DNA of 64,000 nt, from the IMG/VR virus record IMGVR_UViG_3300028887_000078; one strand, given 5' to 3'. Origin of the DNA: a virus (Duplodnaviria; Caudoviricetes). The notes beneath the pieces were generated by a model, which had not been told where the DNA came from, searched no databases, and saw nothing but the letters and a program-made list of their open reading frames with translations. Shown piece by piece: positions 87 through 43,704 of this stretch (position 1 is the first letter of the stretch; each line of letters begins with the position of its first letter). The position numbers and the translations under genes are program-made.

Positions 87-416
87 ATGAAACTGACGGA
101 CACCAATGTATTGGCACCAAAAAGGCAACCAGACATATCACACCTTGTTTCCGACCATCTGAACTACGATAACTACGACGGTACATTGCACGTGTGCATA
201 ATCAACCGAAAAGACAGTCACATCACGGAGTTCAATATCAGGTTCATAAACGAAGGTATGTCCACATACCTGCGCAGAATACTTGATGTACTTGACTTGG
301 ATATAAGCGAGGAGATAAAGTTGGACGCGATAAGGGAATACTTCTACCGATGCTTCTGTGTAAAACTGTTGGAGGAAGTACACGACATAATCAGTGTGAA
401 TGTAACATACAAATAG
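87..416 (+). CDS. MRITES-tag family hypothetical protein (MKLTDT...)
   Basis: ATG at 87 after AGGAGG; N-terminal tag; resembles 34852..35199. Confidence 0.85.
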   Translation: MKLTDTNVLAPKRQPDISHLVSDHLNYDNYDGTLHVCIINRKDSHITEFNIRFINEGMSTYLRRILDVLDLDISEEIKLDAIREYFYRCFCVKLLEEVHDIISVNVTYK

Positions 417-419
417 ACT

Positions 420-803
420 ATGAGAATAACTGAAAGCGGAAACATAAGGGAATCACTGATAAAGGACAAGTTTGACAAGGTGTTCTATGACGACAGGTAT
501 GTTGTTGATGAGAGTGCATACGACACAGTGCTGTATGTTCAGTTCAGGTCGGAAAAAGACCCCAATGACATCCTGACCTACAAGATATTATTCTATGAGG
601 ACTACAACAAGAGCAGTGACGATATGCACAAACTTGTCGTGACGCTTATGAAGGATGAAACTATGGACACCTGCGACAACGCGGTGAAGGAGTACCTGTT
701 CAAGCATCAAGGTGTGATATTCGGTGACATTGAGATAAACGGGGTGGTTTACAACAACCCCTACAAAGTGGTCAGCACAATGATTAAAAGCGCAAGGATA
801 TGA
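420..803 (+). CDS. MRITES-tag family hypothetical protein
   Basis: Starts MRITES; resembles 34415..34855. Confidence 0.9.
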   Translation: MRITESGNIRESLIKDKFDKVFYDDRYVVDESAYDTVLYVQFRSEKDPNDILTYKILFYEDYNKSSDDMHKLVVTLMKDETMDTCDNAVKEYLFKHQGVIFGDIEINGVVYNNPYKVVSTMIKSARI

Positions 804-1297
804 AAATCACAGAAAGCGGCATTTCGGAAACTCTTGAAATGGACAATCCCATATTGGTGGACTCCAATGTCATAATTGACAACGGATACGGGAATTACAC
901 CCACAAACTCATAATCGCCTATTTTGGAGATGGATACCATACACATTTCAGAATACTGTTCAATCCTGAAACGATGAGCATCAAACTGCACAACGCATTC
1001 TTACAGGCGGACATTGACCCTTATAACATAAATCAGTGCAATGTTCCAAACGAAACCGACAATTTTGAACTTATAAAATGCGTGTACTACGATTTTGACA
1101 AGGAGACCGACAAGAAGAAATACAACGGCATCAAAGAATATGTAAACTCCATAAAGCACAACAACCACCCAAATATTGAAATCATATATGGCATCAAGAT
1201 AAACAAAGGTGAGTACTCTGCAAGCAGAGGCACTTATTCGGTGAAGGTGTCAGGCGGTTACTACCATACGACAAACATAACGGCGAAGAATATATGA
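800..1297 (+). CDS. MRITES-tag family hypothetical protein
   Basis: Starts MKITES; ATGA overlap with previous gene. Confidence 0.9.
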   Translation: MKITESGISETLEMDNPILVDSNVIIDNGYGNYTHKLIIAYFGDGYHTHFRILFNPETMSIKLHNAFLQADIDPYNINQCNVPNETDNFELIKCVYYDFDKETDKKKYNGIKEYVNSIKHNNHPNIEIIYGIKINKGEYSASRGTYSVKVSGGYYHTTNITAKNI

Positions 1298-1743
1298 AAC
1301 TATCGGACACGGACAAATTCAAGGGGAACAAACTCACCGACAACGGGGAGTATTACATAAACGACTATGAGGGCGGCAAACCTTCGGGTGGCATCATCGT
1401 TGAGATAACCTGCGCCTCCGAGACCTACCAATTCAACATATACTATGACCTGTTGCGGGTCAGCAGGGAGGTCGCGCAAATCCTTGACGGGATAGAGAAG
1501 CACAAGAACAGATACAACGGTATCACGAAAAAGGAGGGTGACAACAACGCCGCCGAACTTTGTGCCAACATCCTCAAATACCTGAACAAGACATACCCTG
1601 AAATAACGACCGACGGGACATACAGGGTGACGGGATGGAGCAACTACATATATGCGCCGTTCCAAGTGAATGTGGTCGGTGTGAACGGCATATCGGGTGT
1701 GACCGTGAACACAACAATAGGAAATTCAAACTACGCGATATGA
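1294..1743 (+). CDS. MRITES-tag family hypothetical protein
   Basis: Starts MKLSDT; shares KLxDNGEY and FNIxYD with 33946..34428. Confidence 0.9.
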   Translation: MKLSDTDKFKGNKLTDNGEYYINDYEGGKPSGGIIVEITCASETYQFNIYYDLLRVSREVAQILDGIEKHKNRYNGITKKEGDNNAAELCANILKYLNKTYPEITTDGTYRVTGWSNYIYAPFQVNVVGVNGISGVTVNTTIGNSNYAI

Positions 1744-2144
1744 GAATAACACAATCCGACAGTATGGTGAAGGAGGTCATTGATACCTGTGGGAACATTG
1801 ACGTGTTTGACACCACGTCTGCATACAACGATGTGTGCGCTATCTTGGACGGCGGTAAGGCGAAGAACTGCCTCCGCTATGCCGTTCTCGGAATCACAAG
1901 GGACAGGAAAGGTGCGGTCATCAGGATATGGTACAACGACGGAATGGAGTCAAAGCAACTTATGAGGGTGCTGCGGACGATAGCGAACAGGGACTTCATC
2001 ACAACGAAGAGTTGGTACGGTGTTGTTCTCGGATATTTCTGCCGCTACCTGAACGAGACCGCCAACAAGGACATCTTTCCGAAATGGTACAGTATGCGCA
2101 GTGCGAATGCGAAAAAAATGAAGGATATGAGCATACATATCTGA
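1740..2144 (+). CDS. MRITES-tag family hypothetical protein
   Basis: Start moved to ATG 1740 (MRITQS), ATGA overlap. Confidence 0.85.
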   Translation: MRITQSDSMVKEVIDTCGNIDVFDTTSAYNDVCAILDGGKAKNCLRYAVLGITRDRKGAVIRIWYNDGMESKQLMRVLRTIANRDFITTKSWYGVVLGYFCRYLNETANKDIFPKWYSMRSANAKKMKDMSIHI

Positions 2145-2150
2145 AATTTT

Positions 2151-2166
2151 CATTATATTCAATAAA
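2151..2166 (+). promoter_or_regulatory. Early-type promoter motif (CA/TG)TTATATTCAA(TAAA), representative copy
   Basis: Plus-strand copies at about 4, 2151, 2971, 4650, 19511, 54122; minus-strand copies at about 9590, 10107, 10650, 14318, 29593, 31269, 33964, 37061, 37600, 44860; all upstream of gene starts. Confidence 0.8.
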
Positions 2167-2173: not shown

Positions 2174-2446
2174 ATGCGGATAAGCGAGTCAGACGAATTT
2201 GGCAGTGAAATCTATGATGGGGAAGTTTTTGACCTGTATGACGATTTTGCAGTATATCACGCTATGGCGAGGTTCTTGAATCAAGGGGTGAATATTCCGC
2301 CAAACATTATGTATGTGGAATTGGGGTTTACAACAGTTTATTGAAAATCTAATAAAATCTATGAAAAACTGATAAAAACCAACCGATATAAATCTATGCA
2401 CAGTCCGAACAAATATGAGATGAAACAAATGGAGATTGGAATATGA
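2174..2446 (+). pseudogene. MRITES-tag gene with internal in-frame TGA at 2342-2344
   Basis: Starts MRISES; frame stays open after the TGA up to an ATGA overlap with the next gene. Confidence 0.65.
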
Positions 2447-2889
2447 GAATAAGCGACAACACAATTCTTAAAGACCTTGCCGACACGGGAGTCCGCCACA
2501 TAGATTGGGCAGACGGAAGTTGGGGAAACGGTGTGCCGTTCTGCAACCTGTTCACCCTCGCCACCATAAAGTTGTTTGACGGGAAAGGCGGCGTGCTTGA
2601 AGAACCGCAGACACTTGAGTTCAACGCCACATCCTACCAATTTGCCCGCGTATCCTGCGCTATGAGCGAGATAATAAAAGGGGCGATAGCCATCAAGGAA
2701 CTCCGTGAGAGCGGAATAAACGGAAAGGAGATGGAGATGAAGGAGACCTTGCAGACACTTGAACGCAAGGTTAGGAACTACATATCCCAAGTGGCGATTG
2801 GTCGCGACATCCTCTGTCTGACGGAACTGCAAACATTTGACATAAGACTGTATGACGATGACGGGAAGGAGATGTTCAGACTGCTATGA
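2443..2889 (+). CDS. MRITES-tag family hypothetical protein
   Basis: Starts MRISDN. Confidence 0.9.
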   Translation: MRISDNTILKDLADTGVRHIDWADGSWGNGVPFCNLFTLATIKLFDGKGGVLEEPQTLEFNATSYQFARVSCAMSEIIKGAIAIKELRESGINGKEMEMKETLQTLERKVRNYISQVAIGRDILCLTELQTFDIRLYDDDGKEMFRLL

Positions 2890-2994: not shown

Positions 2995-3258
2995 ATGAAA
3001 ATACAGACAACAGACGAGTACGCGGGCAACGTCCTTTACCGATGGCGGGAGTCATTCAACAACGTGTGGCACGAGACACGGTGCGAGGTTATTTCACACA
3101 ACGACAAGACCGCCGTCATAAAACTTCTCGGTTTCGGAAAGGACGGAAGAAGACCAGGTTCCCAAATGCGTGTCAAACTGACATCGCTCGTCGGTTTCAA
3201 ACAGGAAACTCCGAAAGAGGTCGATGACAAGTGGAAAGGTTACACCTATTTCGACTAA
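2995..3258 (+). CDS. Hypothetical protein
   Basis: ORF preceded by CATTATATTCAATAAA at 2971. Confidence 0.85.
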   Translation: MKIQTTDEYAGNVLYRWRESFNNVWHETRCEVISHNDKTAVIKLLGFGKDGRRPGSQMRVKLTSLVGFKQETPKEVDDKWKGYTYFD

Positions 3259-3689
3259 CACTCGTCGTACAACCGCTTGAGGTCTATGTCCCTGTGGTTT
3301 ACCGTGAAGTCGATGAACAGTTGTTCGTATGGCGTCAGTTGTTTGCTTGATATGTTAAACCCGAACGGTATGTTGAAGTATTTGATAATCTTCATATACA
3401 TCTTTGCAATCTTTTGGACGATTGCCTGCGAGTTCATATAAAGCGTTTCAAAATACTCTATCAGGTCGCGGAGTTCTTCCGCAGGGATTGGGTTCTCCTG
3501 TGTGTATTCGTTTTTCACAATCTTGAACACCGCGTCGTAGAACGGTTTCCTGCCGTTCTCAATCTCGCCGAGTCTGTATTTTTTCATCAAAGGTTTGTTC
3601 CTGTATTCGTTCAGTTTCCCTGAAAGGAACTCCGATATGCTTTCCGTCATACGCTCGGAAAATTCACTCATACTCATAATGTGTGTCAC
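3255..3689 (-). CDS. Late hypothetical protein with MTHIMSMSEF leader
   Basis: TATAAATA on minus strand at 3710-3717. Confidence 0.85.
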   Translation of the reverse strand: MTHIMSMSEFSERMTESISEFLSGKLNEYRNKPLMKKYRLGEIENGRKPFYDAVFKIVKNEYTQENPIPAEELRDLIEYFETLYMNSQAIVQKIAKMYMKIIKYFNIPFGFNISSKQLTPYEQLFIDFTVNHRDIDLKRLYDEC

Positions 3690-4661: not shown

Positions 4662-6422
4662 ATGGACAAAAAAGAAATAATAGACGAGGTTCTAACAAGG
4701 CGTATATGCAATGGGAAGTCGTTCGCCAAAATGTTTCCGAAGGAATATGGCGAGATGATGAAAATCGAATTTCCAAAGGATTTCAAGTTTTCACAGAAAC
4801 TTTATCATTATCTGAATTGCGACGACAACCTTGAACTTGGGTTGTGTCCGGAATGCGGAAGTCGCTGTGGATATATAAACCTGAAACGCGGGTACCATAC
4901 CTATTGCTCTTCAAAATGTGCCACGTCTTCCAATGCGGTGCAGGAAAAGATGAAGGCGACCTGCCTTGAAAAGTACGGCGTTGAAAGTCCGACAAAAAAC
5001 AATGATATTAGGGAACGTATAAAGAACACCAACATTGAAAAATATGGTGTTGACAACCCTATGAAGTCCGATTTGGTGAAACATCGTGTGATACAAAACA
5101 CGCTTGAAAAATATGGAGTGGAACACACAACACAACTTGAATGTGTGAAAGAAAAGATAAAACAGGCAAACCTTGAGAAATACGGGTGTGAATGTGTGTT
5201 CGGGTCGGATGTGATAAAGGACAAGATAAAACAGACAAACCTTGAAAAATACGGCAGTGAATACATAGGCGGTTCGGAGGAAATTCGTAAAAAAATCGAA
5301 GAGCGCAACTTTGAGAAATACGGTGTTAAATGCACACTTGAACTCGATTGCATCAAGGAAAAATCAAAGAAGACCAACCTTGAAAAATACGGTGTTGAGC
5401 ATCCTGCACAATCGGAAGAGATACAAAGCAAGGCGAAACGGACGAACAATATGAAATATGGTGTCGATTTTCCATTGTCGTCAAAAGAAGTCCGTGAAAA
5501 AATAAGGAAAACAACACTTGACCGATATGGTGTAGAATGGGCGTGTATGCGAACGGAGGCGAGGAACTATTCCAACGACTCGAAACCGAACAGGGCGTTT
5601 GCCGAACTTTTGTCCGAACGGGGTGTCCAATTCGACCGCGAGTTCCCGCTTGGCAAGTATTCCTATGATTTCAGAATCGGCGACACCCTTGTCGAAATCA
5701 ATCCGACAATCACGCACAACTCGTTTTTAAGTGTTTTTGGGGATGCTCCGAAGTCAAACGACTACCATTGCCAAAAAAGTGAAACAGCCTCTAAAAACGG
5801 TTATAAATGCGTCCATATATGGGATTGGGACGATGTTGGCAAAGTGGTCGCAATGTTTGTGGAAAAGACAACCCTGCACGCAAGGAAACTGAATGTGTGT
5901 GTTGTGGGCACAAACATTGCGGACGTATTTTTCAACGAGAACCACATACAGGGAACCTGCCGAGGGAAGTCGCTTTGTGTCGGTCTCTATGACAACGGCA
6001 CGCTTGTTATGTGTATGGCGTTCGGCAAACCGAGATACAACAGGAATTATGAATTTGAACTGTTGAGGTTGTGTACGAAACAGGGATATGCGGTTGTCGG
6101 CGGGGCGGAGCGTCTGTTCAAGTTTGCGCTTGACAGACTTGAATGTTCAAGTGTGATAAGTTATTGTGACTGTTCAAAGTTCAGCGGCGATGTCTATGAG
6201 CGACTTGGTTTCAAAAAAGTCCGCACTTCAAAACCGACGAAGCATTGGTTCAGGATGTCGGACAGGTGTCACGTCACCGACAACCTGTTGAGGCAGCGCG
6301 GGTTCGACCAACTGTTCAATGCAAATTACGGAAAGGGGACGTCGAATGAGGAACTTATGCTTGAGAATGGATTTCTTCCAGTGTATGATTGCGGTCAGGA
6401 CATTTGGTCTTATGAACGGTAG
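4662..6422 (+). CDS. Free-standing endonuclease-like protein: EKYG repeats, PD-(D/E)xK-like domain, Hef/Mom-like C-terminus
   Basis: CxxC motifs; about 9 TxLEKYGV repeats; YDF..LVEINP; HIWDW; ELLRLC..VGGAERL..SYCD. Confidence 0.7.
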   Translation: MDKKEIIDEVLTRRICNGKSFAKMFPKEYGEMMKIEFPKDFKFSQKLYHYLNCDDNLELGLCPECGSRCGYINLKRGYHTYCSSKCATSSNAVQEKMKATCLEKYGVESPTKNNDIRERIKNTNIEKYGVDNPMKSDLVKHRVIQNTLEKYGVEHTTQLECVKEKIKQANLEKYGCECVFGSDVIKDKIKQTNLEKYGSEYIGGSEEIRKKIEERNFEKYGVKCTLELDCIKEKSKKTNLEKYGVEHPAQSEEIQSKAKRTNNMKYGVDFPLSSKEVREKIRKTTLDRYGVEWACMRTEARNYSNDSKPNRAFAELLSERGVQFDREFPLGKYSYDFRIGDTLVEINPTITHNSFLSVFGDAPKSNDYHCQKSETASKNGYKCVHIWDWDDVGKVVAMFVEKTTLHARKLNVCVVGTNIADVFFNENHIQGTCRGKSLCVGLYDNGTLVMCMAFGKPRYNRNYEFELLRLCTKQGYAVVGGAERLFKFALDRLECSSVISYCDCSKFSGDVYERLGFKKVRTSKPTKHWFRMSDRCHVTDNLLRQRGFDQLFNANYGKGTSNEELMLENGFLPVYDCGQDIWSYER

Positions 6423-6425: not shown

Positions 6426-6836
6426 TCAGTCCACCGTACACATAAGGTATATTTCAACACCACCGCTTTGCGATTGGGACGCCCGCAATCTCAAATTGTT
6501 GAAGTTGTAGGTCTCCAATGCGTTTTTGCAGTAGTTTTTAGTCCATTTGTCCGCATTGGACGATTTGCTGTCGTAGGACGCGAGTATCTTGACACGCACC
6601 TCGGCGGGCGTTGCACCTGTAATCTCGAATGTGTGTATATTGAGTGGAAATTCGAGAACGACACCTGACGCGTAGTTGTATATTCTCATATTCGCAACGG
6701 AACCTTCGCCCAACATACCGACGATTTCGTCGCGGTTTCTTGCAAAGAAACCGTCGGTCGGTGCGCTTGCTTCAAACACCTTGTATATGGGTGCGCTTTC
6801 AAGTATGCCTTGTGACAGCGCCGAATCGGAAATCAT
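6426..6836 (-). CDS. MISD-tag hypothetical protein
   Basis: Starts MISDSAL. Confidence 0.8.
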   Translation of the reverse strand: MISDSALSQGILESAPIYKVFEASAPTDGFFARNRDEIVGMLGEGSVANMRIYNYASGVVLEFPLNIHTFEITGATPAEVRVKILASYDSKSSNADKWTKNYCKNALETYNFNNLRLRASQSQSGGVEIYLMCTVD

Positions 6837-6841: not shown

Positions 6842-7351
6842 TTATTTGCCGAAAACCTTTTCCGCCTCGCGGTTCATCTGCTTGTAGGTGAGGGAAATGG
6901 GACGCTTCGCACCGAACATAGACCCCATACGCAGTCTGCCCTTCCCGTAGACGGGTCTTTTCATTTCGATTTGGTCTTTCGTCATATTGGACATAATCGT
7001 AAGTATCACCCTTGCCGACGCATAGTCCATCGACACCTCCGTGTTGTAATACATCCTTGCGCGGCGGATAAAGTTGCTCACCTCCTCATAGAACGTCTTC
7101 GGTGTGGCGCACCAATGCGGCGACGTGCGTTCATATTCGTTGAGGTTCGAGATGATTTTCTCGTGTGCGGCGAACAGGAAGTGCATAATGGTCTCCCTCG
7201 ACATTTTCCTTTCATAGGAGCGTCTTTCGTTCAATCTGATTACGTTTTCCACTTCCTTGAAGAACTCGTCCTCGTTGGACGAGTCGTTTTCGTACCAGCC
7301 TTTCGAGTAGAGCACGAGGTCAATCCATTCAAAGTCTTTTATCTTTTCCAT
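6842..7351 (-). CDS. Hypothetical protein
   Basis: Tightly packed ORF in minus-strand operon. Confidence 0.85.
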   Translation of the reverse strand: MEKIKDFEWIDLVLYSKGWYENDSSNEDEFFKEVENVIRLNERRSYERKMSRETIMHFLFAAHEKIISNLNEYERTSPHWCATPKTFYEEVSNFIRRARMYYNTEVSMDYASARVILTIMSNMTKDQIEMKRPVYGKGRLRMGSMFGAKRPISLTYKQMNREAEKVFGK

Positions 7352-7373
7352 ATCGTTGTCTCTTTTGTCGTTT

Positions 7374-7733
7374 TTATTGTATTTCTTTCATTGCATTTTC
7401 AACACAACCGTATTTTTCTTTGATTTCGTCACTGAACATATATGTCATTGTTGTGAAATCATCCACAATTTCGTCTAATTCCCAGATTTTGAGCAAGGCT
7501 TTGAAATACGGTATCATAAGTGTCATAAACACTTTGTTGTACAAATAAACGCGTTTGGAGCCTTCGTCATAACCTCCGATGTGCATTGTGAAGGAAATGT
7601 CTTTGTTGAATCCAATCAGAACCGCCATTTCATTTTCGTTTTCTTTCTGACGGGTTCTCAACCTTTCCTCCAATTCGTACATAAATTCTTCTTTACGAGA
7701 CCATCCATTCAACATTCTTTTATCTTTTTCCAT
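7374..7733 (-). CDS. Hypothetical protein
   Basis: Operon packing. Confidence 0.8.
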   Translation of the reverse strand: MEKDKRMLNGWSRKEEFMYELEERLRTRQKENENEMAVLIGFNKDISFTMHIGGYDEGSKRVYLYNKVFMTLMIPYFKALLKIWELDEIVDDFTTMTYMFSDEIKEKYGCVENAMKEIQ

Positions 7734-8338: not shown

Positions 8339-8834
8339 TGTTCAGGATTTTTCCTACACATTCGTTGAACTTGCACATATAGTCATACAGACCATATCGG
8401 ATGAGATAGTTCCGTATTTCTTCAGTCTCGCTGGTTTCGAGTTTCAGTTGTTCCGCCGCATACATTCTCCCGCAGATTAGGAACGCCTTTCTGTGTATGT
8501 CGCTCAATGACAGGAGGTAGTTGAAGCATTTTGAAACAACGTCCGCGTTGTAGCGGGTGATGTACTTCATATAGTTTTCAATGTGACTGATTGGTATGAG
8601 GTTCCATTTCAGACTGTCCATTGTGCAGCATCTGTCTATGTCTTTTCTGTTGTCCACGCAGTTCTTCACGATTGCGACAACTGCGTCGTCGTCGAGGTCG
8701 AAGTGCATAGCGTGCTCACCGTCGTTCCATAGTTGCCGCTCGAAGTCGGTTCCGAAGTGCATAGAAACCCGTTCGTTTTCCTGATAATACATAATGTCTT
8801 TTTTATTTTCCTGTTCAAGATTGGAGCGTTCCAT
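8328..8834 (-). CDS. Hypothetical protein
   Basis: Operon packing. Confidence 0.8.
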   Translation of the reverse strand: MERSNLEQENKKDIMYYQENERVSMHFGTDFERQLWNDGEHAMHFDLDDDAVVAIVKNCVDNRKDIDRCCTMDSLKWNLIPISHIENYMKYITRYNADVVSKCFNYLLSLSDIHRKAFLICGRMYAAEQLKLETSETEEIRNYLIRYGLYDYMCKFNECVGKILNNES

Positions 8835-33557: not shown

Positions 33558-33559
33558 AT

Positions 33560-33949
33560 CTATTCGGTTTTCGTTTTCACGCTGTTTATGCACTCATAGT
33601 CCGCTCTGAATGTTCTGTACCAAAGCACGCTTGCGTTCCTGAAGCGTCTTGTGTGGTGCCGCAGATAGAACTCAAGTTCGTTCACAATCCTTTCCCTGTC
33701 GAAGTCGTATGAATTTCTGATGATTCCGTTCAATGCCATTGTCAACTGACTGTCGTGCCACCACAGGCGGACGCGTTCATTCCTCCCGTTGTTTTTGTTG
33801 AGCACCTCCATCTCAAAAAAATTCAGTCTCGACACCCTGCCGTTGTTTTGGTACGCCCTCAACTGCAAATATGCGAACAGGGTGTCGAACACGTCGTAGA
33901 CGGTTTCGGCGAATTGCTGTTTCAGATGTCCTGCTTCGGTAATTCTCAT
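33560..33949 (-). CDS. MRITES-tag family hypothetical protein
   Basis: Starts MRITEA. Confidence 0.9.
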   Translation of the reverse strand: MRITEAGHLKQQFAETVYDVFDTLFAYLQLRAYQNNGRVSRLNFFEMEVLNKNNGRNERVRLWWHDSQLTMALNGIIRNSYDFDRERIVNELEFYLRHHTRRFRNASVLWYRTFRADYECINSVKTKTE

Positions 33950-34428
33950 TTTATTCCCTTTGGTTGAATATAATGGAAATACTTTTCATCCACTTTCACA
34001 TCCGCATATTTGTTCAGTCCGTGAGACGCGTGCAAGGTCTTGAGCGTCGCCGAGTCCACTATAATATAGGGTGCGAGGACATATTCCCCCATTCTAACGA
34101 ACCTGTATATGTTTGTATCATCCACTTCAGGATAATGTCTCCCTATGTATGACAGCACGATTCGTTGCAGTTCGGTGTCATTTGTCCAATCGTTTCCCTT
34201 CGTTTCTTTTCCGAATGCCTGTTTGATGATTTCACGCAATTCCCCTGTGCAGTTGGCGTCGTCGTATATGATGTTGAACAGGTGCCTGTCGTTCCTGCAA
34301 CTCTCCACCTCGACGGCAATCATACTGTAAGCACGTCGCGACGCTACGCTTTCGGTGTCGTATATCGTGTACTCACCATTGTCCTCAAGTTTTTCTATGT
34401 CAGTGATGTGCGTTTCAGAGATTTTCAT
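33946..34428 (-). CDS. MRITES-tag family hypothetical protein
   Basis: Starts MKISET. Confidence 0.9.
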   Translation of the reverse strand: MKISETHITDIEKLEDNGEYTIYDTESVASRRAYSMIAVEVESCRNDRHLFNIIYDDANCTGELREIIKQAFGKETKGNDWTNDTELQRIVLSYIGRHYPEVDDTNIYRFVRMGEYVLAPYIIVDSATLKTLHASHGLNKYADVKVDEKYFHYIQPKGIK

Positions 34429-34855
34429 TTTTCATCAAGTATTTGTATTCAACACGTTCCAATTTATAACCGTAGTCCAAGACCGTTTTTTCGACACAAC
34501 CGTCTTTGACAACTTCATTCAGCGCTGAACCCAAAACGAAGTCGTGCCGTTTCTCAAGGTATTCCTTCACCGCGTATTCCATTTCTGTGTCTGTGCCGCC
34601 CTTCGCGGTCATAGCACCCAATCCGCTCTTCACGGTCATAGAAACCAATTTGTGAAGTTCGTCGCTGCATTTATAATAGTCCGAATTGAACATAATCGCA
34701 TATCTGATTGGTTTGAGGTTCCTGCATTCCGAACGGAAGGTCACATACATACACACGTCATACTCATCGTCCAACGGGTTCCCGTGGTCGTAGAATGTGC
34801 GGTCTGCGTGATTGTCAATGCCGTACCTTATGTTGTCGGTTTCGCTTATTCTCAT
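34415..34855 (-). CDS. MRITES-tag family hypothetical protein
   Basis: Starts MRISET at 34855. Confidence 0.9.
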   Translation of the reverse strand: MRISETDNIRYGIDNHADRTFYDHGNPLDDEYDVCMYVTFRSECRNLKPIRYAIMFNSDYYKCSDELHKLVSMTVKSGLGAMTAKGGTDTEMEYAVKEYLEKRHDFVLGSALNEVVKDGCVEKTVLDYGYKLERVEYKYLMKNENL

Positions 34856-35199
34856 TTGTGAACTATGTATATGTCTCCGATTTCGTATCTGCATTCTTCC
34901 AATTTGAAGCAGTACATATTGAAAAAGTAGTCCCTTACGGAAGAGATTGTTTTAACCCGCATACGGTCTTCAAACGAACCTGATTCTATGGACTCGACAA
35001 TGTCGTGCAATTCGCCTGTCATATAGTATGTCACATACTTGACATTGAACAATATGGTTTCATTGTTCAGCGTGTCGAACACATTGACAACCATAACGGC
35101 GTCCGATTCGCTTTGGGACAGCATTGTGTCGTTCAGGTTGGCGCTTACGGTTCCTCCCATAACGGTTTCCGATAATGGCGTGGTTTCACTTATTCTCAT
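34852..35199 (-). CDS. MRITES-tag family hypothetical protein
   Basis: Starts MRISET. Confidence 0.9.
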   Translation of the reverse strand: MRISETTPLSETVMGGTVSANLNDTMLSQSESDAVMVVNVFDTLNNETILFNVKYVTYYMTGELHDIVESIESGSFEDRMRVKTISSVRDYFFNMYCFKLEECRYEIGDIYIVHK

Positions 35200-35203
35200 A
35201 ATA

Positions 35204-35617
35204 CTAAATCCAAAGTCCTGTTATATGTTTTTTCTCAAAATCATAATAACCCATAGATGTGATATAGTCGGAGATTTTTTGGATGAGTTTTTCTCACACC
35301 GAATTGTAGTTCGTTTCCCCTGACTTCAGTTTGTTTATATCGGATATTATACTTGCAATCTTCTTGCTTTGGTCGAATTGGTCGTACCAAATTTGGTATT
35401 CCCGCTCATATACGTTGTCCTTCTCCAACCTGCTCACCTCACCGCAGGGCATAGCGGACGTCACAACCCTTATGTTCTTGAGATGCCCTGTCCCCACATA
35501 GATTCCGTCCTTTCGTTTCAAAATCTCCTTTTCAATCCATTCCCTGTCGCATACAATGAACTCGTTTCCGCTGTCCAACACGTTCTCCTTTATGTTTGTG
35601 CTTTCTGTAAGTCTCAT
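35204..35617 (-). pseudogene. MRITES-tag gene with internal in-frame TGA at 35294-35296
   Basis: Frame continues EKLIQKISDYITSMGYYDFEKKHITGLWI to a TAG 4 nt before the next ATG. Confidence 0.65.
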
Positions 35618-35622
35618 CGGTT

Positions 35623-36141
35623 TTATTGGTTTAACAGTTTTTTTATTTCATTTTTGAGGCATTCCTCGATGTCTTCCTCCACTTTCTTGACAACAAGGTG
35701 CCGTATGAATGCGTGTACATACTTTTTTGTGTCCACTATGCGGCACCGACCGCCGACGCATTCCCATTCATATATGTCGAAACCATTGTCGCCATCCGCA
35801 AAATAGTTGCTCAACATACGGAGGTATTCGTTGGCAATGTGTGAGAAATAACGGTACTTGTACCGTGCAGGAACGTTGTTGGTGTTTTTCTTTGCCTTTT
35901 TGTAAGCCTCGCCAAGTGTGTGTGAGTCAAATGCGCATTTGTCAAGTCCTGAACCATTGTGTTCGATTTTCAATGCAAGCGTCCGTGTTATTCGTGCGTC
36001 ACACTTACTTCTTATGCACAGGATGAGGTATTCGTTATCGCAGTCGGATTGCGTCTCACCTATGTCAATCGGGTACGGTCTTATGTCAAACCCGTTGAAT
36101 ATGTTGTCGTTCTTTATAATTCCTGTGTCTGTCAGTCTCAT
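35623..36141 (-). CDS. MRITES-tag family hypothetical protein
   Basis: Starts MRLTDT. Confidence 0.9.
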   Translation of the reverse strand: MRLTDTGIIKNDNIFNGFDIRPYPIDIGETQSDCDNEYLILCIRSKCDARITRTLALKIEHNGSGLDKCAFDSHTLGEAYKKAKKNTNNVPARYKYRYFSHIANEYLRMLSNYFADGDNGFDIYEWECVGGRCRIVDTKKYVHAFIRHLVVKKVEEDIEECLKNEIKKLLNQ

Positions 36142-36145
36142 AATC

Positions 36146-36532
36146 TCATTGTTTTACAACATAGACATAGACGCTGTATTTCAAAAATTCCTCGCTGTAT
36201 TTGGACGACAATGGGTGTGCGCGGATGTATTCATAGATATAGCTGCTCGGACAGGGGTTCTCTTTGTTTCTTATGTTCGTTATGAGCGCGGACATAGGTT
36301 TGCTCATAACATCGCCGTAGTTTATGCACACCATTATTATATGCAGTTTGCTCAAGTTGTTGTGTGCGAACCCCTCCTTTGCTTTTATAAACCTGTGCGC
36401 ATAGATTTTCAACTTGCGGTCGGTTTCACACATTTCGCCTTCAAGCAGATAGTTGTCGTCAAGTTCTATGCTGTCTATGTCGTCTATGCACTTTTCGTTT
36501 TCAACGATGCCTTTTCTTTCAGTCAGTTTCAT
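36146..36532 (-). CDS. MRITES-tag family hypothetical protein
   Basis: Starts MKLTER. Confidence 0.85.
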   Translation of the reverse strand: MKLTERKGIVENEKCIDDIDSIELDDNYLLEGEMCETDRKLKIYAHRFIKAKEGFAHNNLSKLHIIMVCINYGDVMSKPMSALITNIRNKENPCPSSYIYEYIRAHPLSSKYSEEFLKYSVYVYVVKQ

Positions 36533-36536
36533 AACG

Positions 36537-37058
36537 CTATTTTTTTATAGACCATTGTGTCGCACTCACCGCCTTGTAGTACACAATGTTCTTCACTCTT
36601 GCCATTGCATACGGATGGTTGTGAAAATACTCTGTCAGAAGTTTGTCCCTCTTTTCGCGTTCCTCCATTTCCATATATCGGCACCTTTTGTAATAATCGT
36701 CGTAATTGGCAATGGACTCCGAACCGAATATGGCGCCTTTGAAATTTTTGTACGCCACGACTTTTGTATGGTGGTCGAGTATCTCCTTCATCATCGGCGA
36801 TTGGTATGCCTTGTCGGATGTGTATATTATTTCACATCGGATGTAGTCTTTGTCGTCTTTGTCGAACCCATAGACAAGGTCTGTAAAACTGTCTTTGCTG
36901 TTTGGGTACTCCTTTCCGAAAACAACTACGAATTTGTGCGAGAACTTGTCCGACGCACTTTCGCAGTCCGCGTCTGTGCGAATGTCGTACAATACGAGTT
37001 CGCCGTCGTTCTTTTCGTCGGCGATTTCCGACAGGTTTTGTGTTTCTGTTATTCTCAT
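36537..37058 (-). CDS. MRITES-tag family hypothetical protein
   Basis: Starts MRITET at 37058. Confidence 0.9.
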   Translation of the reverse strand: MRITETQNLSEIADEKNDGELVLYDIRTDADCESASDKFSHKFVVVFGKEYPNSKDSFTDLVYGFDKDDKDYIRCEIIYTSDKAYQSPMMKEILDHHTKVVAYKNFKGAIFGSESIANYDDYYKRCRYMEMEEREKRDKLLTEYFHNHPYAMARVKNIVYYKAVSATQWSIKK

Positions 37059-37088
37059 ATTTGAATATAACAAAAAAATCGACTGATT

Positions 37089-37583
37089 TTATCCGAAATA
37101 TATATAATCTCCGTTCCACTCAACCGCATCGACAAAATAGTCTTCTATGCTGTCGAACGACAAAAGCATATTCGGGTGCAGACTTATGTAGTTCTTCAGT
37201 TCGCAGAAGAACCTTCTTTTGCATACAAACGGGTCGTCATTCCCTTTATGCTTTCGGTGGCGCCAATAGGGTGCCGAATACGGGTTGGGTTCGCTTTCAA
37301 TCCAAAGCAATGAGTTCGACGATTTGTATTTTCTCCATTTTTTCAAAACCCTTTGTATGGACTGCGATTGGCAGGAATGGTGTGTGTTGTACACGATTTT
37401 CGCAAATATGGTCTTGCGCCTGTCGCCTTCAAACTTGACGAGTTCGACTGTCATATCGTCGCATTCGTCGCTCGCGTAAAGCGTGCGGGACGGCATATAC
37501 TCCCTGTCGTTGAGGGTGATTTCACCCTCGTCCAGCCGTTTCGATATTCCATCTTTCACGGTGTCGGTTTCGCTTATTCTCAT
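37089..37583 (-). CDS. MRITES-tag family hypothetical protein
   Basis: Starts MRISET; early-type promoter at about 37599-37614. Confidence 0.9.
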   Translation of the reverse strand: MRISETDTVKDGISKRLDEGEITLNDREYMPSRTLYASDECDDMTVELVKFEGDRRKTIFAKIVYNTHHSCQSQSIQRVLKKWRKYKSSNSLLWIESEPNPYSAPYWRHRKHKGNDDPFVCKRRFFCELKNYISLHPNMLLSFDSIEDYFVDAVEWNGDYIYFG

Positions 37584-37682
37584 AATTCCGATTCGTTTTT
37601 ATTGAATATAATGGAAACGCATAAAAAAGAAACACCGATATATCCGCGATATATCGGTGGTTTATATTGGTGTTCACGGATT

Positions 37683-38754: not shown

Positions 38755-39108
38755 TCAGGAAAATTCGATAGTATAGTATTGCGACACGAACCTTTCCGTG
38801 TTCGCGATGTTGTTGTGTATGTACCTGTCGAAAAGTCTAAACAAGTCGAAGTCGTTCGCACCCAACGGGTCTTTTTGCAGTTTGTCTATTTCATCGTTTA
38901 TCTCCCTTATGTATATGGACGGGGAGTCGTACACATAAATCTGCACGTTCGCGCTCGAACTCCCTATGGCGTGCTCGCGCATATATACGGTGAACTTGTA
39001 GAGCGGTACGGATTCTTTCCATCTTCCGTCGTGTATGTCGAACCCGTCGGTTACGATTCCGCCGCCTGTACAGTTTTTCAATGTATTGTTTTCCGTTATC
39101 CTGCCCAT
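38755..39108 (-). CDS. MRITES-tag family hypothetical protein
   Basis: Starts MGRITEN. Confidence 0.85.
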   Translation of the reverse strand: MGRITENNTLKNCTGGGIVTDGFDIHDGRWKESVPLYKFTVYMREHAIGSSSANVQIYVYDSPSIYIREINDEIDKLQKDPLGANDFDLFRLFDRYIHNNIANTERFVSQYYTIEFS

Positions 39109-39126
39109 AACACAATCTGTTTTTGT

Positions 39127-39561
39127 TTATTTATGGGACGACTTTTCTTCAAGCATTTTCCTGTATGCTTCAAGTTCAGTTCCGTCTATTCCGGTCACGT
39201 TAATCTGCATTGCCTTGCACATTGACGTGAACGGGAGGAGTTTTTTCACATAGGTTCCGAGTTTTTTCCAAAAGATTGTGTTCGACGAACCGTATCCACA
39301 CCAACGGTTCATCATCACGATGTCACTGAAGTCGGCGGACGGCACTACATTGAATATATCTTCGAGTTCGTAAGGTATGCTTTCGGCGTCGTATATCACT
39401 CTGACGTTCAAGTACATTTTCGTGTTCCTCATATCAATTCTCATAAGCATCCAACTCGGACATTCCGACAAAGTGGGTTCGATTATGCAAAGGGCGCTTT
39501 CGTCCGCGATTTTCCCGTTGCCTATCATAGTGCCTACGTCCGATTCGCTTATCCTGCTCAT
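39127..39561 (-). CDS. MRITES-tag family hypothetical protein
   Basis: Starts MSRISES at 39561. Confidence 0.85.
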   Translation of the reverse strand: MSRISESDVGTMIGNGKIADESALCIIEPTLSECPSWMLMRIDMRNTKMYLNVRVIYDAESIPYELEDIFNVVPSADFSDIVMMNRWCGYGSSNTIFWKKLGTYVKKLLPFTSMCKAMQINVTGIDGTELEAYRKMLEEKSSHK

Positions 39562-39929
39562 AAATCGTTCACAAGTGTGTCGTACAGTTCCTCCGGCGTC
39601 GCAATCGACACGTCGTTTCCCTTTTCGTCTGTCAGGCAACCGCTTGTGTACTTCTTTCCGAACTCAAGGTCGTATATGAAGTATTGGAGGGTGTTGTTCT
39701 TTTCAGGAAGTTCAAATTCGGACTCAAGCGCGCCGATGAGTTCGTTTTCAAGTTCGGTGTTGTGCAGAAGTCCGAACAGGTCTACGAAGTCCATATCGTT
39801 TCTGAAACGGGAGGTGTTACGGAGCGTGTTCTCAATCCCGTCCTCGATTTCATCCGCGGAGGTTCTCGCCTTTTCAAGCGCCTTTATGATTTTGCAGAAG
39901 GTTTCCTTTTTCATTATTTTCCTTGCCAT
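39558..39929 (-). CDS. Conserved phage hypothetical protein
   Basis: YFIYDLEFGK..TPEELYD motif. Confidence 0.8.
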   Translation of the reverse strand: MARKIMKKETFCKIIKALEKARTSADEIEDGIENTLRNTSRFRNDMDFVDLFGLLHNTELENELIGALESEFELPEKNNTLQYFIYDLEFGKKYTSGCLTDEKGNDVSIATPEELYDTLVNDL

Positions 39930-39992
39930 ATCAGAGTGTATAAAACGTGACACTTTAATATAACAAAAAACACGCCGCTTTTAACAGCATTG

Positions 39993-40448
39993 TCAAAAAA
40001 TCTCATTCCAACCTTCATCGCACCAAGGGTACCATCGGTTCTTTATCGGTATTTTCGCGACCTCGCTTGTGCAGACCGACGCTATCGTGCAGTTTTCAAG
40101 GGACGGGACGTTTTTCCCGATGTATTCCGAAAGGGTGCTGAATATGTCTCCGTTGTAGTTCAGGTTCGACTTGTAATTGTTCGGTTCGGCATTCAGTTTA
40201 TCTATGACGCGCGTTATTTCAGGCGATGTTTTTTCAGTGGCGTATATGACGCAGGTGGTGGCGATTTCACTCAATATGCTCGCCACGATTTCATAAACGG
40301 GTTCCACCTTCGGCGCACCGCTCCCATTGTCCGCATAGTTGTCGAAAATGCAGATGCAGCGGAACGGTTTGCCGTTAAGGAGTTTGTCCATTTTCATCCA
40401 CGCCTTGTTTCGGATGCCTATCTCTATGCAACTTTCACTTATCCTCAT
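39993..40448 (-). CDS. MRITES-tag family hypothetical protein
   Basis: Starts MRISES. Confidence 0.85.
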   Translation of the reverse strand: MRISESCIEIGIRNKAWMKMDKLLNGKPFRCICIFDNYADNGSGAPKVEPVYEIVASILSEIATTCVIYATEKTSPEITRVIDKLNAEPNNYKSNLNYNGDIFSTLSEYIGKNVPSLENCTIASVCTSEVAKIPIKNRWYPWCDEGWNEIF

Positions 40449-40842
40449 TTTCAACCAATTTCACGTCATACACCTCGAAGTCGATGTCCACTATGAACGA
40501 CCTGCAATTACGCGTGATGTAATTCGCCGCGTATTTGAAGAGGGTTTCCCTGCTTTTGCAGTGGTGCTTCTTTATGACCGCATACACATCGAGTATGCAG
40601 TCCAAGCAGGTGGTGCGCATCAACAAAATGTCGGTGAACTCGACCACGACCTTGCTGCGCTTTTCCGCGCCTGTGTCAGCGTCTTTGTATTTGACGTACA
40701 GGTGTATTTCTCCGAAATTGCAATTCTTGCCAGAATACAGTTTTTCCCCGCCGACGCCCAACCAACACTGCACGTCGTCAACGGTCTCCAACACGTCAAC
40801 GTCTATCGAGTTCCTTATGTTGTCGGATTCAGTCAGTCTCAT
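40435..40842 (-). CDS. MRITES-tag paralog (VVVEF/YDV subfamily)
   Basis: Starts MRLTES. Confidence 0.9.
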   Translation of the reverse strand: MRLTESDNIRNSIDVDVLETVDDVQCWLGVGGEKLYSGKNCNFGEIHLYVKYKDADTGAEKRSKVVVEFTDILLMRTTCLDCILDVYAVIKKHHCKSRETLFKYAANYITRNCRSFIVDIDFEVYDVKLVENEDK

Positions 40843-41249
40843 AATAGTTCGATTCGTTTCATTTCAATAACCCTCACGTCATACACTTCGTACTCACACA
40901 TCGACAGAATGCTGTGATGCCGAAGATATATTTCCGCCTGTTTGAGCAGTTGCGTTTTGTTCTCGCTTGTGTCTGATTTCATAAATTCATAATAAGCACC
41001 CAAGACTATGTCTATCAAACTTGTCCGTATTGTCCACCTTGACGAGAACTCAACCACCGCCTTGTACTTTGTTGAGGTGCGCGTTTCACGGATGTAAATG
41101 TGAAGTTCGTTCCACATCTCGTTTGGAGGCACTATGAAAGTGCCAACGCTTGTGCAGTTTATCTTGGAAACGCTTGTGTCGTTTATCGTGGTCAAGGTTT
41201 CCACATTCTCAAGCGGAACGATGTCTGTGTTCGATTCGGTCAGTCTCAT
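40839..41249 (-). CDS. MRITES-tag paralog, recent tandem duplicate
   Basis: Near-identical to 41246..41629. Confidence 0.9.
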   Translation of the reverse strand: MRLTESNTDIVPLENVETLTTINDTSVSKINCTSVGTFIVPPNEMWNELHIYIRETRTSTKYKAVVEFSSRWTIRTSLIDIVLGAYYEFMKSDTSENKTQLLKQAEIYLRHHSILSMCEYEVYDVRVIEMKRIELL

Positions 41250-41629
41250 AGTTCGATTCGTTTCATTTCAATAACCCTCACGTCATATACTTCGTACTCA
41301 CACATCGGCAGAATGCTGTAGTGCCGAAGATATATTTCCGCCTGTTTGAGCAGTTGCGTTTTGTTCTCGCTTGTGTCTGATTTCATAAATTCATCATAGG
41401 CGACCAAGACTATGTCCATCAAACTTGTCCGTAATGCCCACCTTGACGAGAACTCAACCACCGCCTTGTACTTTGTTAAGGTGCGCGTTTCACGGATGTG
41501 AATGTGCAGTTCGTTCAACACCTCGTTTGATGGCACCCTGAAACTGCAAAGTTGTATGTCGTTTATCGTGGTCAGGGTTTCCGCATTATCAAGCGGAACG
41601 ATGTCTGTGTTCGATTCGGTCAGTCTCAT
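41246..41629 (-). CDS. MRITES-tag paralog, recent tandem duplicate
   Basis: Near-identical to 40839..41249. Confidence 0.9.
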   Translation of the reverse strand: MRLTESNTDIVPLDNAETLTTINDIQLCSFRVPSNEVLNELHIHIRETRTLTKYKAVVEFSSRWALRTSLMDIVLVAYDEFMKSDTSENKTQLLKQAEIYLRHYSILPMCEYEVYDVRVIEMKRIEL

Positions 41630-41637
41630 AGTTCTTG

Positions 41638-42003
41638 TTATTTTATGTCGATTTGCGGCAGTTTCACATCATACACTTCAAATTCGTCCCTTACAATGTC
41701 ATAAGTGCGGACATAGTCGCGTGCAATACCCTTCAATGTGCCTTTGGTAATTAAGTTTCGTTCAAACTGTCTGTATGCGTTCAACAAGTTGTCCATTTTT
41801 GACGAGTGCAGCATCCACTCCACTGCATATTGCACGGTTATCCGTTTCCGAACCCCGTCCTTCCTTACATATATCCACGCCTGACGGTACTCCTTCCTGC
41901 CGTTCGCTTTCCCGCCTGTAAGAAGTCCATAGTCATCGAAAACGGTCAGGTCTTCAACATAGTCCGTAAGGTTCTTCAGATTATCGTTTTCCGTTATTCT
42001 CAT
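41638..42003 (-). CDS. MRITES-tag paralog
   Basis: Starts MRITEN. Confidence 0.9.
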   Translation of the reverse strand: MRITENDNLKNLTDYVEDLTVFDDYGLLTGGKANGRKEYRQAWIYVRKDGVRKRITVQYAVEWMLHSSKMDNLLNAYRQFERNLITKGTLKGIARDYVRTYDIVRDEFEVYDVKLPQIDIK

Positions 42004-42018
42004 ATCCTGTTCGGTGTT

Positions 42019-42444
42019 TCAATTTTTGATTATCGTGACGTCCGTGATGGCATTGTATTGTATGTCGAAAAAGTCGGCAAGACCGTTCGTGAACAGATAG
42101 AGCATATAGCGCTGCGCCCAATATGCCCTGTACGAAAGCGTGATGAACATATTGTCAGACACCACTTTTGAGATTCTGTCGCTTATGTAGCGACCGCTTT
42201 TGTCGTCCACGAAACGCACGACCACAATTCCGTGTTTTTCCTTGACGGGTCTGTTCATATCACCAACGACTATCTTGCGTATATGGATATGCACTTCGGA
42301 AAACGTGAGGTTCTCCTTCTTTGCGAACTCCTCCGCGAACCCGTCGCTTTCCCCAAGCAGTATGGCGAGGTCGTTGTATTCCCCGAACATCTCCAATCCT
42401 TCGCTCACGGACTTCATTATGTTGTCGCTTTCCGTTATCCGCAT
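42019..42444 (-). CDS. MRITES-tag paralog
   Basis: Starts MRITES. Confidence 0.9.
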   Translation of the reverse strand: MRITESDNIMKSVSEGLEMFGEYNDLAILLGESDGFAEEFAKKENLTFSEVHIHIRKIVVGDMNRPVKEKHGIVVVRFVDDKSGRYISDRISKVVSDNMFITLSYRAYWAQRYMLYLFTNGLADFFDIQYNAITDVTIIKN

Positions 42445-42866
42445 AATTCGTCCTCCTGTATTTCAACGTCGTAAATACGGAACTCATCAACGTTTTTCAA
42501 CTGCGGCGTATGCTTCAACCAATGCCTGTAGTATCTCGTCGCGCAATATAGTACTTCCGTTATGGGTTTGCCTTTGTGATAGTCATACCAAGACAGCAGT
42601 CTGTTCATCGCGTGTGTCGCATAACTGTTGTGTCTTTCGGTCAGGAACTCAATCTCTATCCTTTTCCTGCCTCTGACCCGTCTGTTGCCCGACGTCATCG
42701 TGCATTCCCCGTAGAAAAACATTTTTCCGAATTTCAGATTGCTTTTGTCCACCCCATACAGTTGACTCAAATCGTCGCCGTACAGGAATTTCAGGTCATT
42801 GAACTTCCCGATGGTCTCTATGCCGTTTGCAAGACTTTTCAGATTGTCGCTTTCGGATATTCTCAT
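42435..42866 (-). CDS. MRITES-tag paralog
   Basis: Starts MRISES at 42866. Confidence 0.9.
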   Translation of the reverse strand: MRISESDNLKSLANGIETIGKFNDLKFLYGDDLSQLYGVDKSNLKFGKMFFYGECTMTSGNRRVRGRKRIEIEFLTERHNSYATHAMNRLLSWYDYHKGKPITEVLYCATRYYRHWLKHTPQLKNVDEFRIYDVEIQEDELCG

Positions 42867-42868
42867 CG

Positions 42869-43267
42869 CTATATGATTTTCACGTCGGTAAGTTTCACAA
42901 GACTTGTCGCGATTGGGAAATTGGTGCACCACATATAGGTGCGCACCGACATTTCAAGGTCTTTGTTTGTCACGACGTCAGGGTTTTTTTCATAACGCTC
43001 AAATACATTGTCGAGCGCGGCGGTCATCCACCTACCGTTGTGGTTACGGACAAAGAACACCGTGTACCTGAACGGTACGGAATACCCGTCATCCCTTCCG
43101 CCCCGTGCAAGACCCCGTATTTCCAATATGGAGGTGTCGAGTATTTCCATATATTCCTTGACCCGTTTGCGGTCGTTTCCGAGAAGGGGCGCTATGTCCC
43201 AATACTCATAGTGCAGGGTGTTGTCCCCGGCGATGTCCATTGTGGTTCTGTTTTCGCTTATTCTCAT
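42869..43267 (-). CDS. MRITES-tag paralog
   Basis: Starts MRISEN. Confidence 0.9.
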   Translation of the reverse strand: MRISENRTTMDIAGDNTLHYEYWDIAPLLGNDRKRVKEYMEILDTSILEIRGLARGGRDDGYSVPFRYTVFFVRNHNGRWMTAALDNVFERYEKNPDVVTNKDLEMSVRTYMWCTNFPIATSLVKLTDVKII

Positions 43268-43275
43268 TTTCCTGT

Positions 43276-43704
43276 CTATTCAAAGTTGAAGTCATACACG
43301 CAGAAGGACACTATGCCCTTGAAACTCAAATCATACATCAGCATATTCCTGACATACAAATCCAACGCGTTCATCAATTTTGCATTGTTTTTGGAGTTTT
43401 CCTTTATGTATTCGTCATAGTTCCGTATGACGTTTTCCATTGCCGTTGAAGTGAGCATCCCGAACTCGTTTATGAACTTGACCACGACCTTTCCCGTCGT
43501 CTGTCGCCGCACACCGCCCACCGTCTCGGTGCATTTGCCGTAGATTGTGAGTATGGAATAGCAGTCGCACAAACCAATACTCCTGTCGAATGCGTCCTCG
43601 TTGCTTTTTGTCACGCCGTGCAGGATGTGGCAGTCGTTCAGCACCGCGACGGTCTTCGGTTCTCCGAGCAGTTCCTTTGTGTTTTCGGATTCCGTGAGTC
43701 GCAT
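43276..43704 (-). CDS. MRITES-tag paralog
   Basis: Starts MRLTES. Confidence 0.9.
   Translation of the reverse strand: MRLTESENTKELLGEPKTVAVLNDCHILHGVTKSNEDAFDRSIGLCDCYSILTIYGKCTETVGGVRRQTTGKVVVKFINEFGMLTSTAMENVIRNYDEYIKENSKNNAKLMNALDLYVRNMLMYDLSFKGIVSFCVYDFNFE

Follow-up and report, generated by a model that had tools for sequence, protein, structure and literature searches.

Why do dozens of small proteins encoded by a single gut phage begin with nearly the same five residues, and what might read them? The question is raised by a 64,000-nucleotide stretch of viral DNA (Caudoviricetes; IMG/VR record IMGVR_UViG_3300028887_000078), here called the window, which lies near the right end of a 163,494 bp contig and whose left flank was also read. 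The element concerned, which we call the tag, is an N-terminal peptide with the core [R/K]-[I/L]-[S/T]-[E/D] and the frequent continuation [S/T]-x-N-[I/L]-[K/R]. Judged by analogy with phage T4, it is most likely a prohead leader, which would amount to a pared-down form of the Alt leader (M-E-L-I-T-E) and of the 10-residue targeting sequence of the T4 internal proteins (IPs). We give a probability of about 0.35 to the fuller reading, in which the tag would be a head-loading and protease leader of the Alt/capsid targeting sequence (CTS) type on a large, fast-evolving accessory repertoire.

A six-frame scan of the window yielded 36 open reading frames (ORFs) of at least 100 amino acids (aa) that begin M[RK][ILV][ST][DE], together with two further short tag ORFs (2174-2344+ and 8141-8338-); another match, at 1950-2153(-), is probably a spurious antisense ORF. 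The tag genes encode 107-173 aa, and a tagged DUF285 protein has 219 aa. In 28 of the 36, residues 3-5 form [IL]-[ST]-E; residue 5 is Asp in six and Gln or Lys in two. Variants over the first six residues are MRITQS (1740-2144+) and MRISKS (32170-32577-), and in MGRITE (38755-39108-), MSRISE (39127-39561-) and MARLTD (15061-15690-) the core is shifted one residue inward; it begins at residue 2 (or 3) in every tag gene. Lys takes the place of Arg in about 12-20% of copies. When 110 copies, the phage's own and those of its relatives, are taken together, information content is 3.2-3.8 bits at each of positions 2-5 and 2.3 bits at position 6 (S/T/N), compared with a median of 1.1 bits for well-occupied body columns, and positions 8-10 favor N-[I/L]-[K/R].

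Chance does not account for these starts. The core [RK][ILV][STD][DE] within residues 1-10, or its Arg-less form, is found in 52 of 99 curated genes, whereas 0.5 would be expected from how often this pattern turns up inside the proteins (16 times in 18,000 positions), and a chance origin was rejected on these figures. The 52 genes take in the MGRITE, MSRISE and MARLTD variants as well as the MISD array and the late leader described below; the untagged genes of the window show no comparable start. The first-pass annotation of this DNA, which had reported about 39 genes starting M[RK][IL][ST][ED] in three arrays plus singletons, two of them encoding DUF285 repeat proteins, is confirmed and its count enlarged (36 ORFs, the two short ones and the near variants); the arrays are located where it had placed them, and both DUF285 assignments hold. 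The tag genes are as follows.

87-416, 420-803, 800-1297 and 1294-1743 (+): array 1 (span 87-2889), first part, tag genes by their N-termini
1740-2144 (MRITQS), 2174-2344 (short) and 2443-2889 (+): array 1, second part
30277-30627, 30624-31085, 31321-31731, 31772-32179 and 32170-32577 (-): array 2 (span 30277-37583; 16 tag genes), part 1
32586-33071, 33081-33557, 33560-33949, 33946-34428, 34415-34855 and 34852-35199 (-): array 2, part 2
35294-35617, 35623-36141, 36146-36532, 36537-37058 and 37089-37583 (-): array 2, part 3
38755-39108 (MGRITE), 39127-39561 (MSRISE), 39993-40448, 40435-40842 and 40839-41249 (-): array 3 (span 38755-43704), part 1
41246-41629, 41638-42003, 42019-42444, 42435-42866, 42869-43267 and 43276-43704 (-): array 3, part 2
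10126-10641 (-): singleton, MRLTET, with an orphan body and a promoter-like TTATATTCAA box at 10659
24549-25025 (+): singleton, MRLSET, with an orphan body; it closes the MISD array
25790-26239 (-): singleton, MKLTET, with an orphan body
14398-15057 (-): DUF285 repeat protein, start MKISES (PF03382, E = 1.8e-33)
15061-15690 (-): second DUF285 repeat protein, start MARLTD, tag shifted one residue (PF03382, E = 4.9e-29)

The tag is, by structure prediction, a disordered N-terminal tail of about 12 residues that lies outside the fold. In an AlphaFold2 model made from a 73-row family alignment (mean predicted local distance difference test [pLDDT] score 82.6, predicted template modeling [pTM] score 0.78), pLDDT stays below 50 over residues 1-12, which form no secondary structure; the first strand follows at residues 16-22. 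What is most conserved in the family is therefore a tail predicted to be flexible, rather than the first strand. The idea that the tag is simply a first beta-strand was rejected, as both AlphaFold2 models that we obtained leave residues 1-12 unstructured.

Judged from sequence comparison, the tag stands on at least three kinds of body, namely a superfamily of small proteins, the DUF285 proteins and the MISD family, plus four orphans. Neither the DUF285 proteins nor the MISD family showed a profile link to the superfamily, nor did the orphan bodies at 2443, 10126, 24549 and 25790, so that one leader heads mature proteins that are otherwise unrelated. Because the chance rate is below 1e-3 per protein, the two tagged DUF285 proteins are not a coincidence. 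"Portable" is therefore a fair word for this label. The first-pass annotation had set its proposal against the case of a single fold with the motif as its first strand and the DUF285 carriers as accidents; one fold does cover most carriers, but the tag is not a structural part of it and the DUF285 carriers are not chance.

The constraint acts on the peptide and not on the DNA, as had been proposed. All ten Ser/Thr codons and nothing else occur at position 4, eight of the nine Ile/Leu codons are in use at position 3, and position 2 is written AGA, AGG, CGG, CGA or AAA; every replacement in the tag is conservative (R/K, I/L, S/T, E/D). When the phage was compared with a close relative, the human-gut metagenome contig L001, which has the same arrays, synonymous divergence was 0.18 in tag codons 2-10 and 0.16 in the bodies, and non-synonymous divergence was lower in the tag (0.062) than in the bodies (0.087). 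It is these conservative replacements through many codons, along with the equal synonymous divergence of tag and bodies, that place the constraint on the peptide. The register-shift variants insert an extra GGC, AGC or GCG codon and keep R-I-T-E, and one tag-gene ortholog in the relatives uses a GTG start. Two candidates were dropped at this point: pure DNA-level conservation, in view of the ten position-4 codons and the matching synonymous divergence, and a mobile regulatory cassette at gene starts like that of RB49/phi1, since the conserved element is peptide and not DNA.

There is also a codon bias on top of the peptide constraint. Arg is encoded by AGA in 69% of tag positions versus about 19% elsewhere, Ile by ATA in 87% versus about 45%, Glu by GAA in 96% versus about 62%, and Lys by AAA in seven of seven versus about 54%. 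Most tag genes have no Shine-Dalgarno site and have an A near -3, and about eight of their starts overlap the preceding stop as ATGA, which also favors an A-initial second codon. This A-rich bias fits selection for A-rich, unstructured starts.

What kind of leader, then, might such a peptide be? By its gene content and by the TATAAATA boxes ahead of its late genes, the phage is T4-like. The left flank encodes gp32 (PF08804), Phage_T4_gp13, Cpn10 and RNA ligase, and the window encodes a topoisomerase II large subunit (phrog_543), thymidine kinase, a Ro/TROVE-like protein, a collagen-like fiber and homing endonucleases. The prohead protease of T4, gp21, cleaves behind L/I-x-E; residues 1-10 of IPIII are enough to load foreign proteins into the head, and with Asp at the cut position cleavage is blocked although targeting still occurs (PMC9026906). 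Alt of T4 is shortened by six residues, gp21 cutting its leader at I-T-E (PMC5694885), and the internal proteins of T-even phages are diverse defense inhibitors that have only their leader in common (PMC3012670). With one residue fewer than the Alt leader, M-R-I-T-E conforms to the same I/L-x-E rule.

Applied to this phage, a head-loading leader would work as follows. Expression from the TTATATTCAA promoter class would let the tagged proteins build up in the infected cell. At prohead assembly, the leader would bind the scaffolding core and a gp21-like protease would cut after [I/L]-x-E; copies with Asp may be loaded and remain uncut, as in T4. Once matured, the proteins would remain inside the head until they reach the next host cell together with the DNA. 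The cargo would then be a large, fast-turnover set of small, mostly acidic proteins made up of a superfamily of about 31 paralogs with the DUF285, MISD-family and orphan proteins, plausibly aimed at host defenses.

A second leader in the window bears on this reading. Eight further genes (110-359 aa), coding for unrelated-looking proteins, begin M-x-[HK]-I-x-[RK]-[IV]-[DS]-E-[MFL], and this M-x-H-I-x-R-I-D-E-M form looks like a full-length T4 capsid targeting sequence. The sequence TATAAATA lies 20-30 nt upstream of many late-looking genes; four of the eight stand directly behind it, among them 29817-30149(+), whose leader reads M-A-H-I-K-R-I-D-E-L. This late leader and the tag have an R-I-x-E core in common. 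They differ in what flanks the acidic residue: S/T on its N-terminal side and S/T/N on its C-terminal side in the tag, but D/N and M/F/L, respectively, in the late leader. An Arg-less form of the tag, M-I-S-D-[NS]-x-[IT]-L-K, starts the MISD array, whose bodies belong to a different, beta-rich family; all M-I-S-D-type genes of that family have Asp at the cut position.

21535 (MITSTP), 21950, 22379, 22841, 23250, 23669 and 24130 (+): starts of seven paralogs, the MISD array (span 21535-24552)
6426-6836 (-): singleton with the Arg-less tag, start MISDS
3255-3689, 13789-14295, 18709-19062 and 25205-25732 (-): late-leader genes
16188-16928, 20606-21202, 29817-30149 and 62262-63341 (+): late-leader genes

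The start at 16188 (M-T-K-I-M-R-I-D-E-F) is also reached by a single frame, 15966-16928(+), which joins a Lys-rich 74-residue N-terminal part to the leader-bearing protein and is preceded by TATAAATA at 15937; from the sequence, this could be a fusion or two nested starts.

Among the readings considered, a head leader has the best precedent, and it accounts for the I/L-x-E core as well as for the tag's portability, its predicted disorder and its kinship with the late leader. The first-pass annotation had taken the early-type promoters of the tag genes as an argument against T4-style capsid targeting, but this argument from timing is weak. The phage is itself T4-like, Alt provides an I-T-E leader (PMC5694885), and synthesis of T4 IPI-III, which also have leaders, is abundant in the early as well as the late phase (PMC6071114).

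The bodies behind the tag were compared after its removal, by BLAST clustering and then by pairwise comparison of 21 tag-free subfamily profiles, with relatives drawn from two database searches and three contigs. BLAST gave only small clusters, and an iterative hidden Markov model search with tag-less bodies within the window stalled at seven members; links emerged only once relatives were added and profiles compared. Within the family, 17 of 210 profile pairs reached P < 0.01 and nine P < 0.001, against none of 462 control pairs with other small window proteins at P < 0.01 (Mann-Whitney P = 3.6e-13 for family versus control scores). The predicted elements run strand 16-22, helix 23-28, strands 43-53 and 60-70, helices 78-92 and 99-112, and strand 122-130, and an earlier AlphaFold2 model of a different subfamily has the identical order. 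Because of these profile links and the common element order of the two models, we group about 31 of the small tagged proteins into one remote superfamily with one predicted fold. For most carriers, then, the earlier description of several dissimilar subfamilies does not stand.

This predicted fold appears to be new so far as searches of the PDB, BFVD and ESM Atlas reach. Foldseek with both models found nothing in the PDB or BFVD at E <= 0.001; the best VIA-align match among 48,161 chains (Z = 4.7) and the best ESM Atlas match (template modeling score 0.42) were not read as relatives, and every protein language-model look-alike scored below 0.9. Pfam and PHROGs had no family for the small tagged proteins other than DUF285. 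Cultured phages gave no DNA or protein match for the arrays, a tag protein or a 1045-aa protein, and IMG/VR scans with one tag protein and with a 529-aa late protein gave no relatives. The family profile retrieved just 43 cluster representatives among 1.84 billion proteins. All full-length matches begin with the tag, two of them behind an upstream-extended gene call, and two truncated matches are exceptions. A homodimer prediction for one tag protein scored 0.15 against a mark of 0.42.

In composition, the tagged proteins are mostly acidic, with a median isoelectric point (pI) of 5.4 and 27 of 38 below pI 6. The median ratio of non-synonymous to synonymous substitution rates (dN/dS) is about 0.46 for the tag-gene bodies versus about 0.16 for neighboring genes, and between relatives copies are gained, duplicated, truncated or lost. 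In this divergence and copy turnover, the bodies behave like arms-race genes. Array 1 appears from its gene order to be an old segmental copy of part of array 2: its genes at 87, 420, 1294 and 1740 are paralogs of 34852, 34415, 33946 and 33560/32170 with the order kept. The duplicated segments, 87-2144(+) and 33560-35199(-), lie on opposite strands and share four genes that are only 20-37% identical. On L001, two orthologs have departed from the pattern: 7041-7493 (ortholog of 43276-43704) has its tag replaced by another N terminus, M/L-K-I-D-L-R-Y, and 8624-8755 (ortholog of 42019-42444) is only a 43-residue remnant.

Turning to transcription, a T-rich stretch with a TTATATTCAA box occurs at 16 sites, mostly 5-25 nt ahead of a start codon, including 2153, 2973, 4650 and 54124 on the plus strand and 44870, 37611, 37070, 33973, 14328 and 10659 on the minus strand. 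These boxes form a promoter-like class distinct from TATAAATA. They precede five tag genes (2174, 10641, 33949, 37058 and 37583) and also stand ahead of the operon leading into the 43704 array, a Clp ATPase gene, a homing endonuclease gene and others; no tag gene in the window has TATAAATA directly ahead of it. The claim that the tag genes follow an early-type promoter is therefore upheld as to the presence of TTATATTCAA and the absence of TATAAATA, but among the tag genes the boxes themselves are found only at these five and at the one operon. Some boxes lie so near the start codon that the mRNA would be nearly leaderless. Two long, perfect hairpins bracket array 2 and, from their sequence, look like terminators. 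One, at 37633-37659, consists of a double palindrome of the GATATATC type with a T run behind it and stands between the array and, upstream, the late gene and the thymidine kinase gene; the other, at 30209-30239, lies at its end.

Other genes around the arrays include an untagged gene (39558-39929) interleaved within array 3 and, upstream of that array, a glucosaminidase gene (44132-44848) to which the box at 44870 belongs. The phage also encodes DnaJ-like and GroES-like proteins, and the following unfoldase.

54170-56173 (+): Clp-type double-AAA+ unfoldase (AAA_2, 1.4e-56; ClpB_D2-small, 3.7e-15; phrog_4871)

This Clp ATPase has its TTATATTCAA box at 54124 and is without an N-domain. A K-V-V-G-F loop follows just after the TSN motif of its D2 module, at a position which we take to be the ClpP docking site of ClpA and ClpC, and the enzyme may dock on ClpP. 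A homing-endonuclease-like gene, 56263-57624(+), lies in an island of 30% G+C between the Clp ATPase and topoisomerase II genes, and a second such gene is found at 4662-6422.

Several observations weigh against a head-loading leader. To our knowledge, a head packaged with fifty or more protein species is without precedent in T4-like phages. Prohead protease, scaffold and capsid genes are not in the window or in the flanks read, although a gp21-like protease and a scaffold are likely to be encoded, given the T4-like nature of the phage. Tag genes are without TATAAATA boxes of their own, the TTATATTCAA class that serves the arrays also precedes nonstructural genes (Clp ATPase and homing endonuclease), and the terminator-like hairpin closes off read-through out of the neighboring late gene. 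Asp occupies the cut position in 6 of 36 genes, in all M-I-S-D-type genes and in about half of the copies on another relative, L005. Conservation extends beyond the supposed cut site, to positions 6-10, and the five-residue tag offers no counterpart of the hydrophobic targeting residues 4 and 7 of T4 IPIII. Early tag and late leader differ systematically, which may mean that each has a reader of its own. Finally, the proteins are mostly acidic (median pI 5.4), whereas T4 internal proteins are described as highly basic (PMC6071114).

Among the alternatives, the best specific rival is a handle for the phage's own Clp unfoldase. The tag would then be a degron that delivers early and middle accessory proteins to the unfoldase and ClpP and gives them a short, programmed life. 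The tail is terminal and predicted to be disordered, as degrons are, the double-AAA+ enzyme without an N-domain carries a V-G-F loop, and its gene and the tag genes belong to the same TTATATTCAA class. However, no likeness to a described ClpX or ClpA N-terminal signal was seen, none having been specifically tested, and the R-I-x-E core of the late, TATAAATA-driven leader would be left unexplained; we also know of no phage that tags half of its accessory proteins for degradation, and we think this reading rather improbable. It is also possible, if doubtful, that the tag is a docking site for a different shared partner of host or phage origin (RNA polymerase, the ribosome, the nucleoid or a chaperone, for example), with the bodies supplying different activities. 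Docking peptides typically show this pattern of a conserved linear motif, predicted to be disordered, in front of variable bodies; the motif also tolerates a one-residue shift, and the DnaJ-like and GroES-like proteins are at hand. Yet this proposal is generic, names no candidate partner, and nothing favors docking over the T4 precedent. Alternatively, two separate address codes might coexist, which we hold only tentatively: the late leader would send enzymes into the head, and the early/middle tag M-R-I-[S/T]-E, on about 45 accessory proteins, would be read by another machine. That machine could be the putatively ClpP-docking unfoldase, for timed clearance, or phosphorylation of the S/T could mimic R-I-D-E and turn cytoplasmic effectors into late head cargo.

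The remaining alternatives give the tag no address or a chemical one. An inherited start cassette of one expanding gene family, retained because it makes initiation and early elongation efficient in a host without Shine-Dalgarno usage, and spread to a few other genes by recombination at gene starts, would suit the membership of most carriers in one superfamily, the strongly A-rich tag codons (AGA, ATA, GAA, AAA) and the many starts without Shine-Dalgarno sites or with ATGA overlaps. Regulatory cassettes that shuffle small genes are likewise described in T4-type phages (PMC2839356). We nevertheless consider a cassette quite unlikely: replacements are only conservative through many codons, the tag matches the bodies in synonymous divergence (0.18 versus 0.16) and is lower in non-synonymous divergence, the codon-insertion variants retain R-I-T-E, untagged genes of the window have no such start, and the tag persists while the bodies diverge past recognition by BLAST. 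Least probable, to the point that we would be surprised by it, is a modification site, with R-x-S/T as a phospho-acceptor for a phage kinase or the Arg as a target of a phage ADP-ribosyltransferase, serving as an on/off switch or as a mimic of R-I-D-E. Position 4 is always Ser or Thr in the window (Cys also in relatives), and the late leader has Asp or Asn at the equivalent place; Lys for Arg in about 12-20% of copies is unfit for an Arg-specific ADP-ribosyltransferase.

Taken together, the most economical filing of the tag is as a variant of the T4 leader system, although it could be a separate addressing code. If it is a head-loading leader, this capsid would be preloaded with dozens of small proteins, far beyond the handful of T4, the arrays would amount to a catalogue of candidate injected antidefense factors from the gut, and five residues would be enough for loading, which would be useful for phage-based protein delivery. 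If some other machine reads the tag, it would represent a phage-wide protein-addressing or turnover code of an undescribed kind. In either case, a body fold that is new within the searches made, and that has only 43 cluster representatives among 1.84 billion proteins, is itself of interest.

Of the known systems, the N-terminal signals of Clp substrates resemble the tag in being short, unstructured terminal peptides read by an AAA+ unfoldase, of which this phage encodes one; they differ in that no sequence resemblance to a described signal has been established. The phiKZ-like and SPN3US giant phages likewise have many head-internal proteins, some of them paralogous, that are cut after Glu by a gp21-like protease (PMC9026906, PMC5694885), but their propeptides are 20 to >100 residues long, the motif is S/A-x-E, and the genes are late. 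T4 IPI-III, too, have a portable leader that ends in I-x-E on diverse, fast-evolving small proteins (PMC9026906, PMC3012670), and their synthesis is both early and late (PMC6071114). Their leader, however, has 10 residues with determinants at positions 4 and 7, and the proteins are basic and of few kinds, whereas the carriers here are mostly acidic and most belong to one superfamily; the late M-x-H-I-x-R-I-D-E-M leader matches the IP sequence more closely than does the tag. The T4 Alt leader differs from the tag in that here there are five residues, with a basic residue before the I/L, on about 45 genes instead of one, under a non-late promoter class and with packaging and cleavage only proposed. 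Both are nonetheless N-terminal, very short and found in T4-type phages, and the Alt leader, which closes with I-T-E as M-R-I-T-E does, belongs to a packaged and injected protein (PMC5694885).

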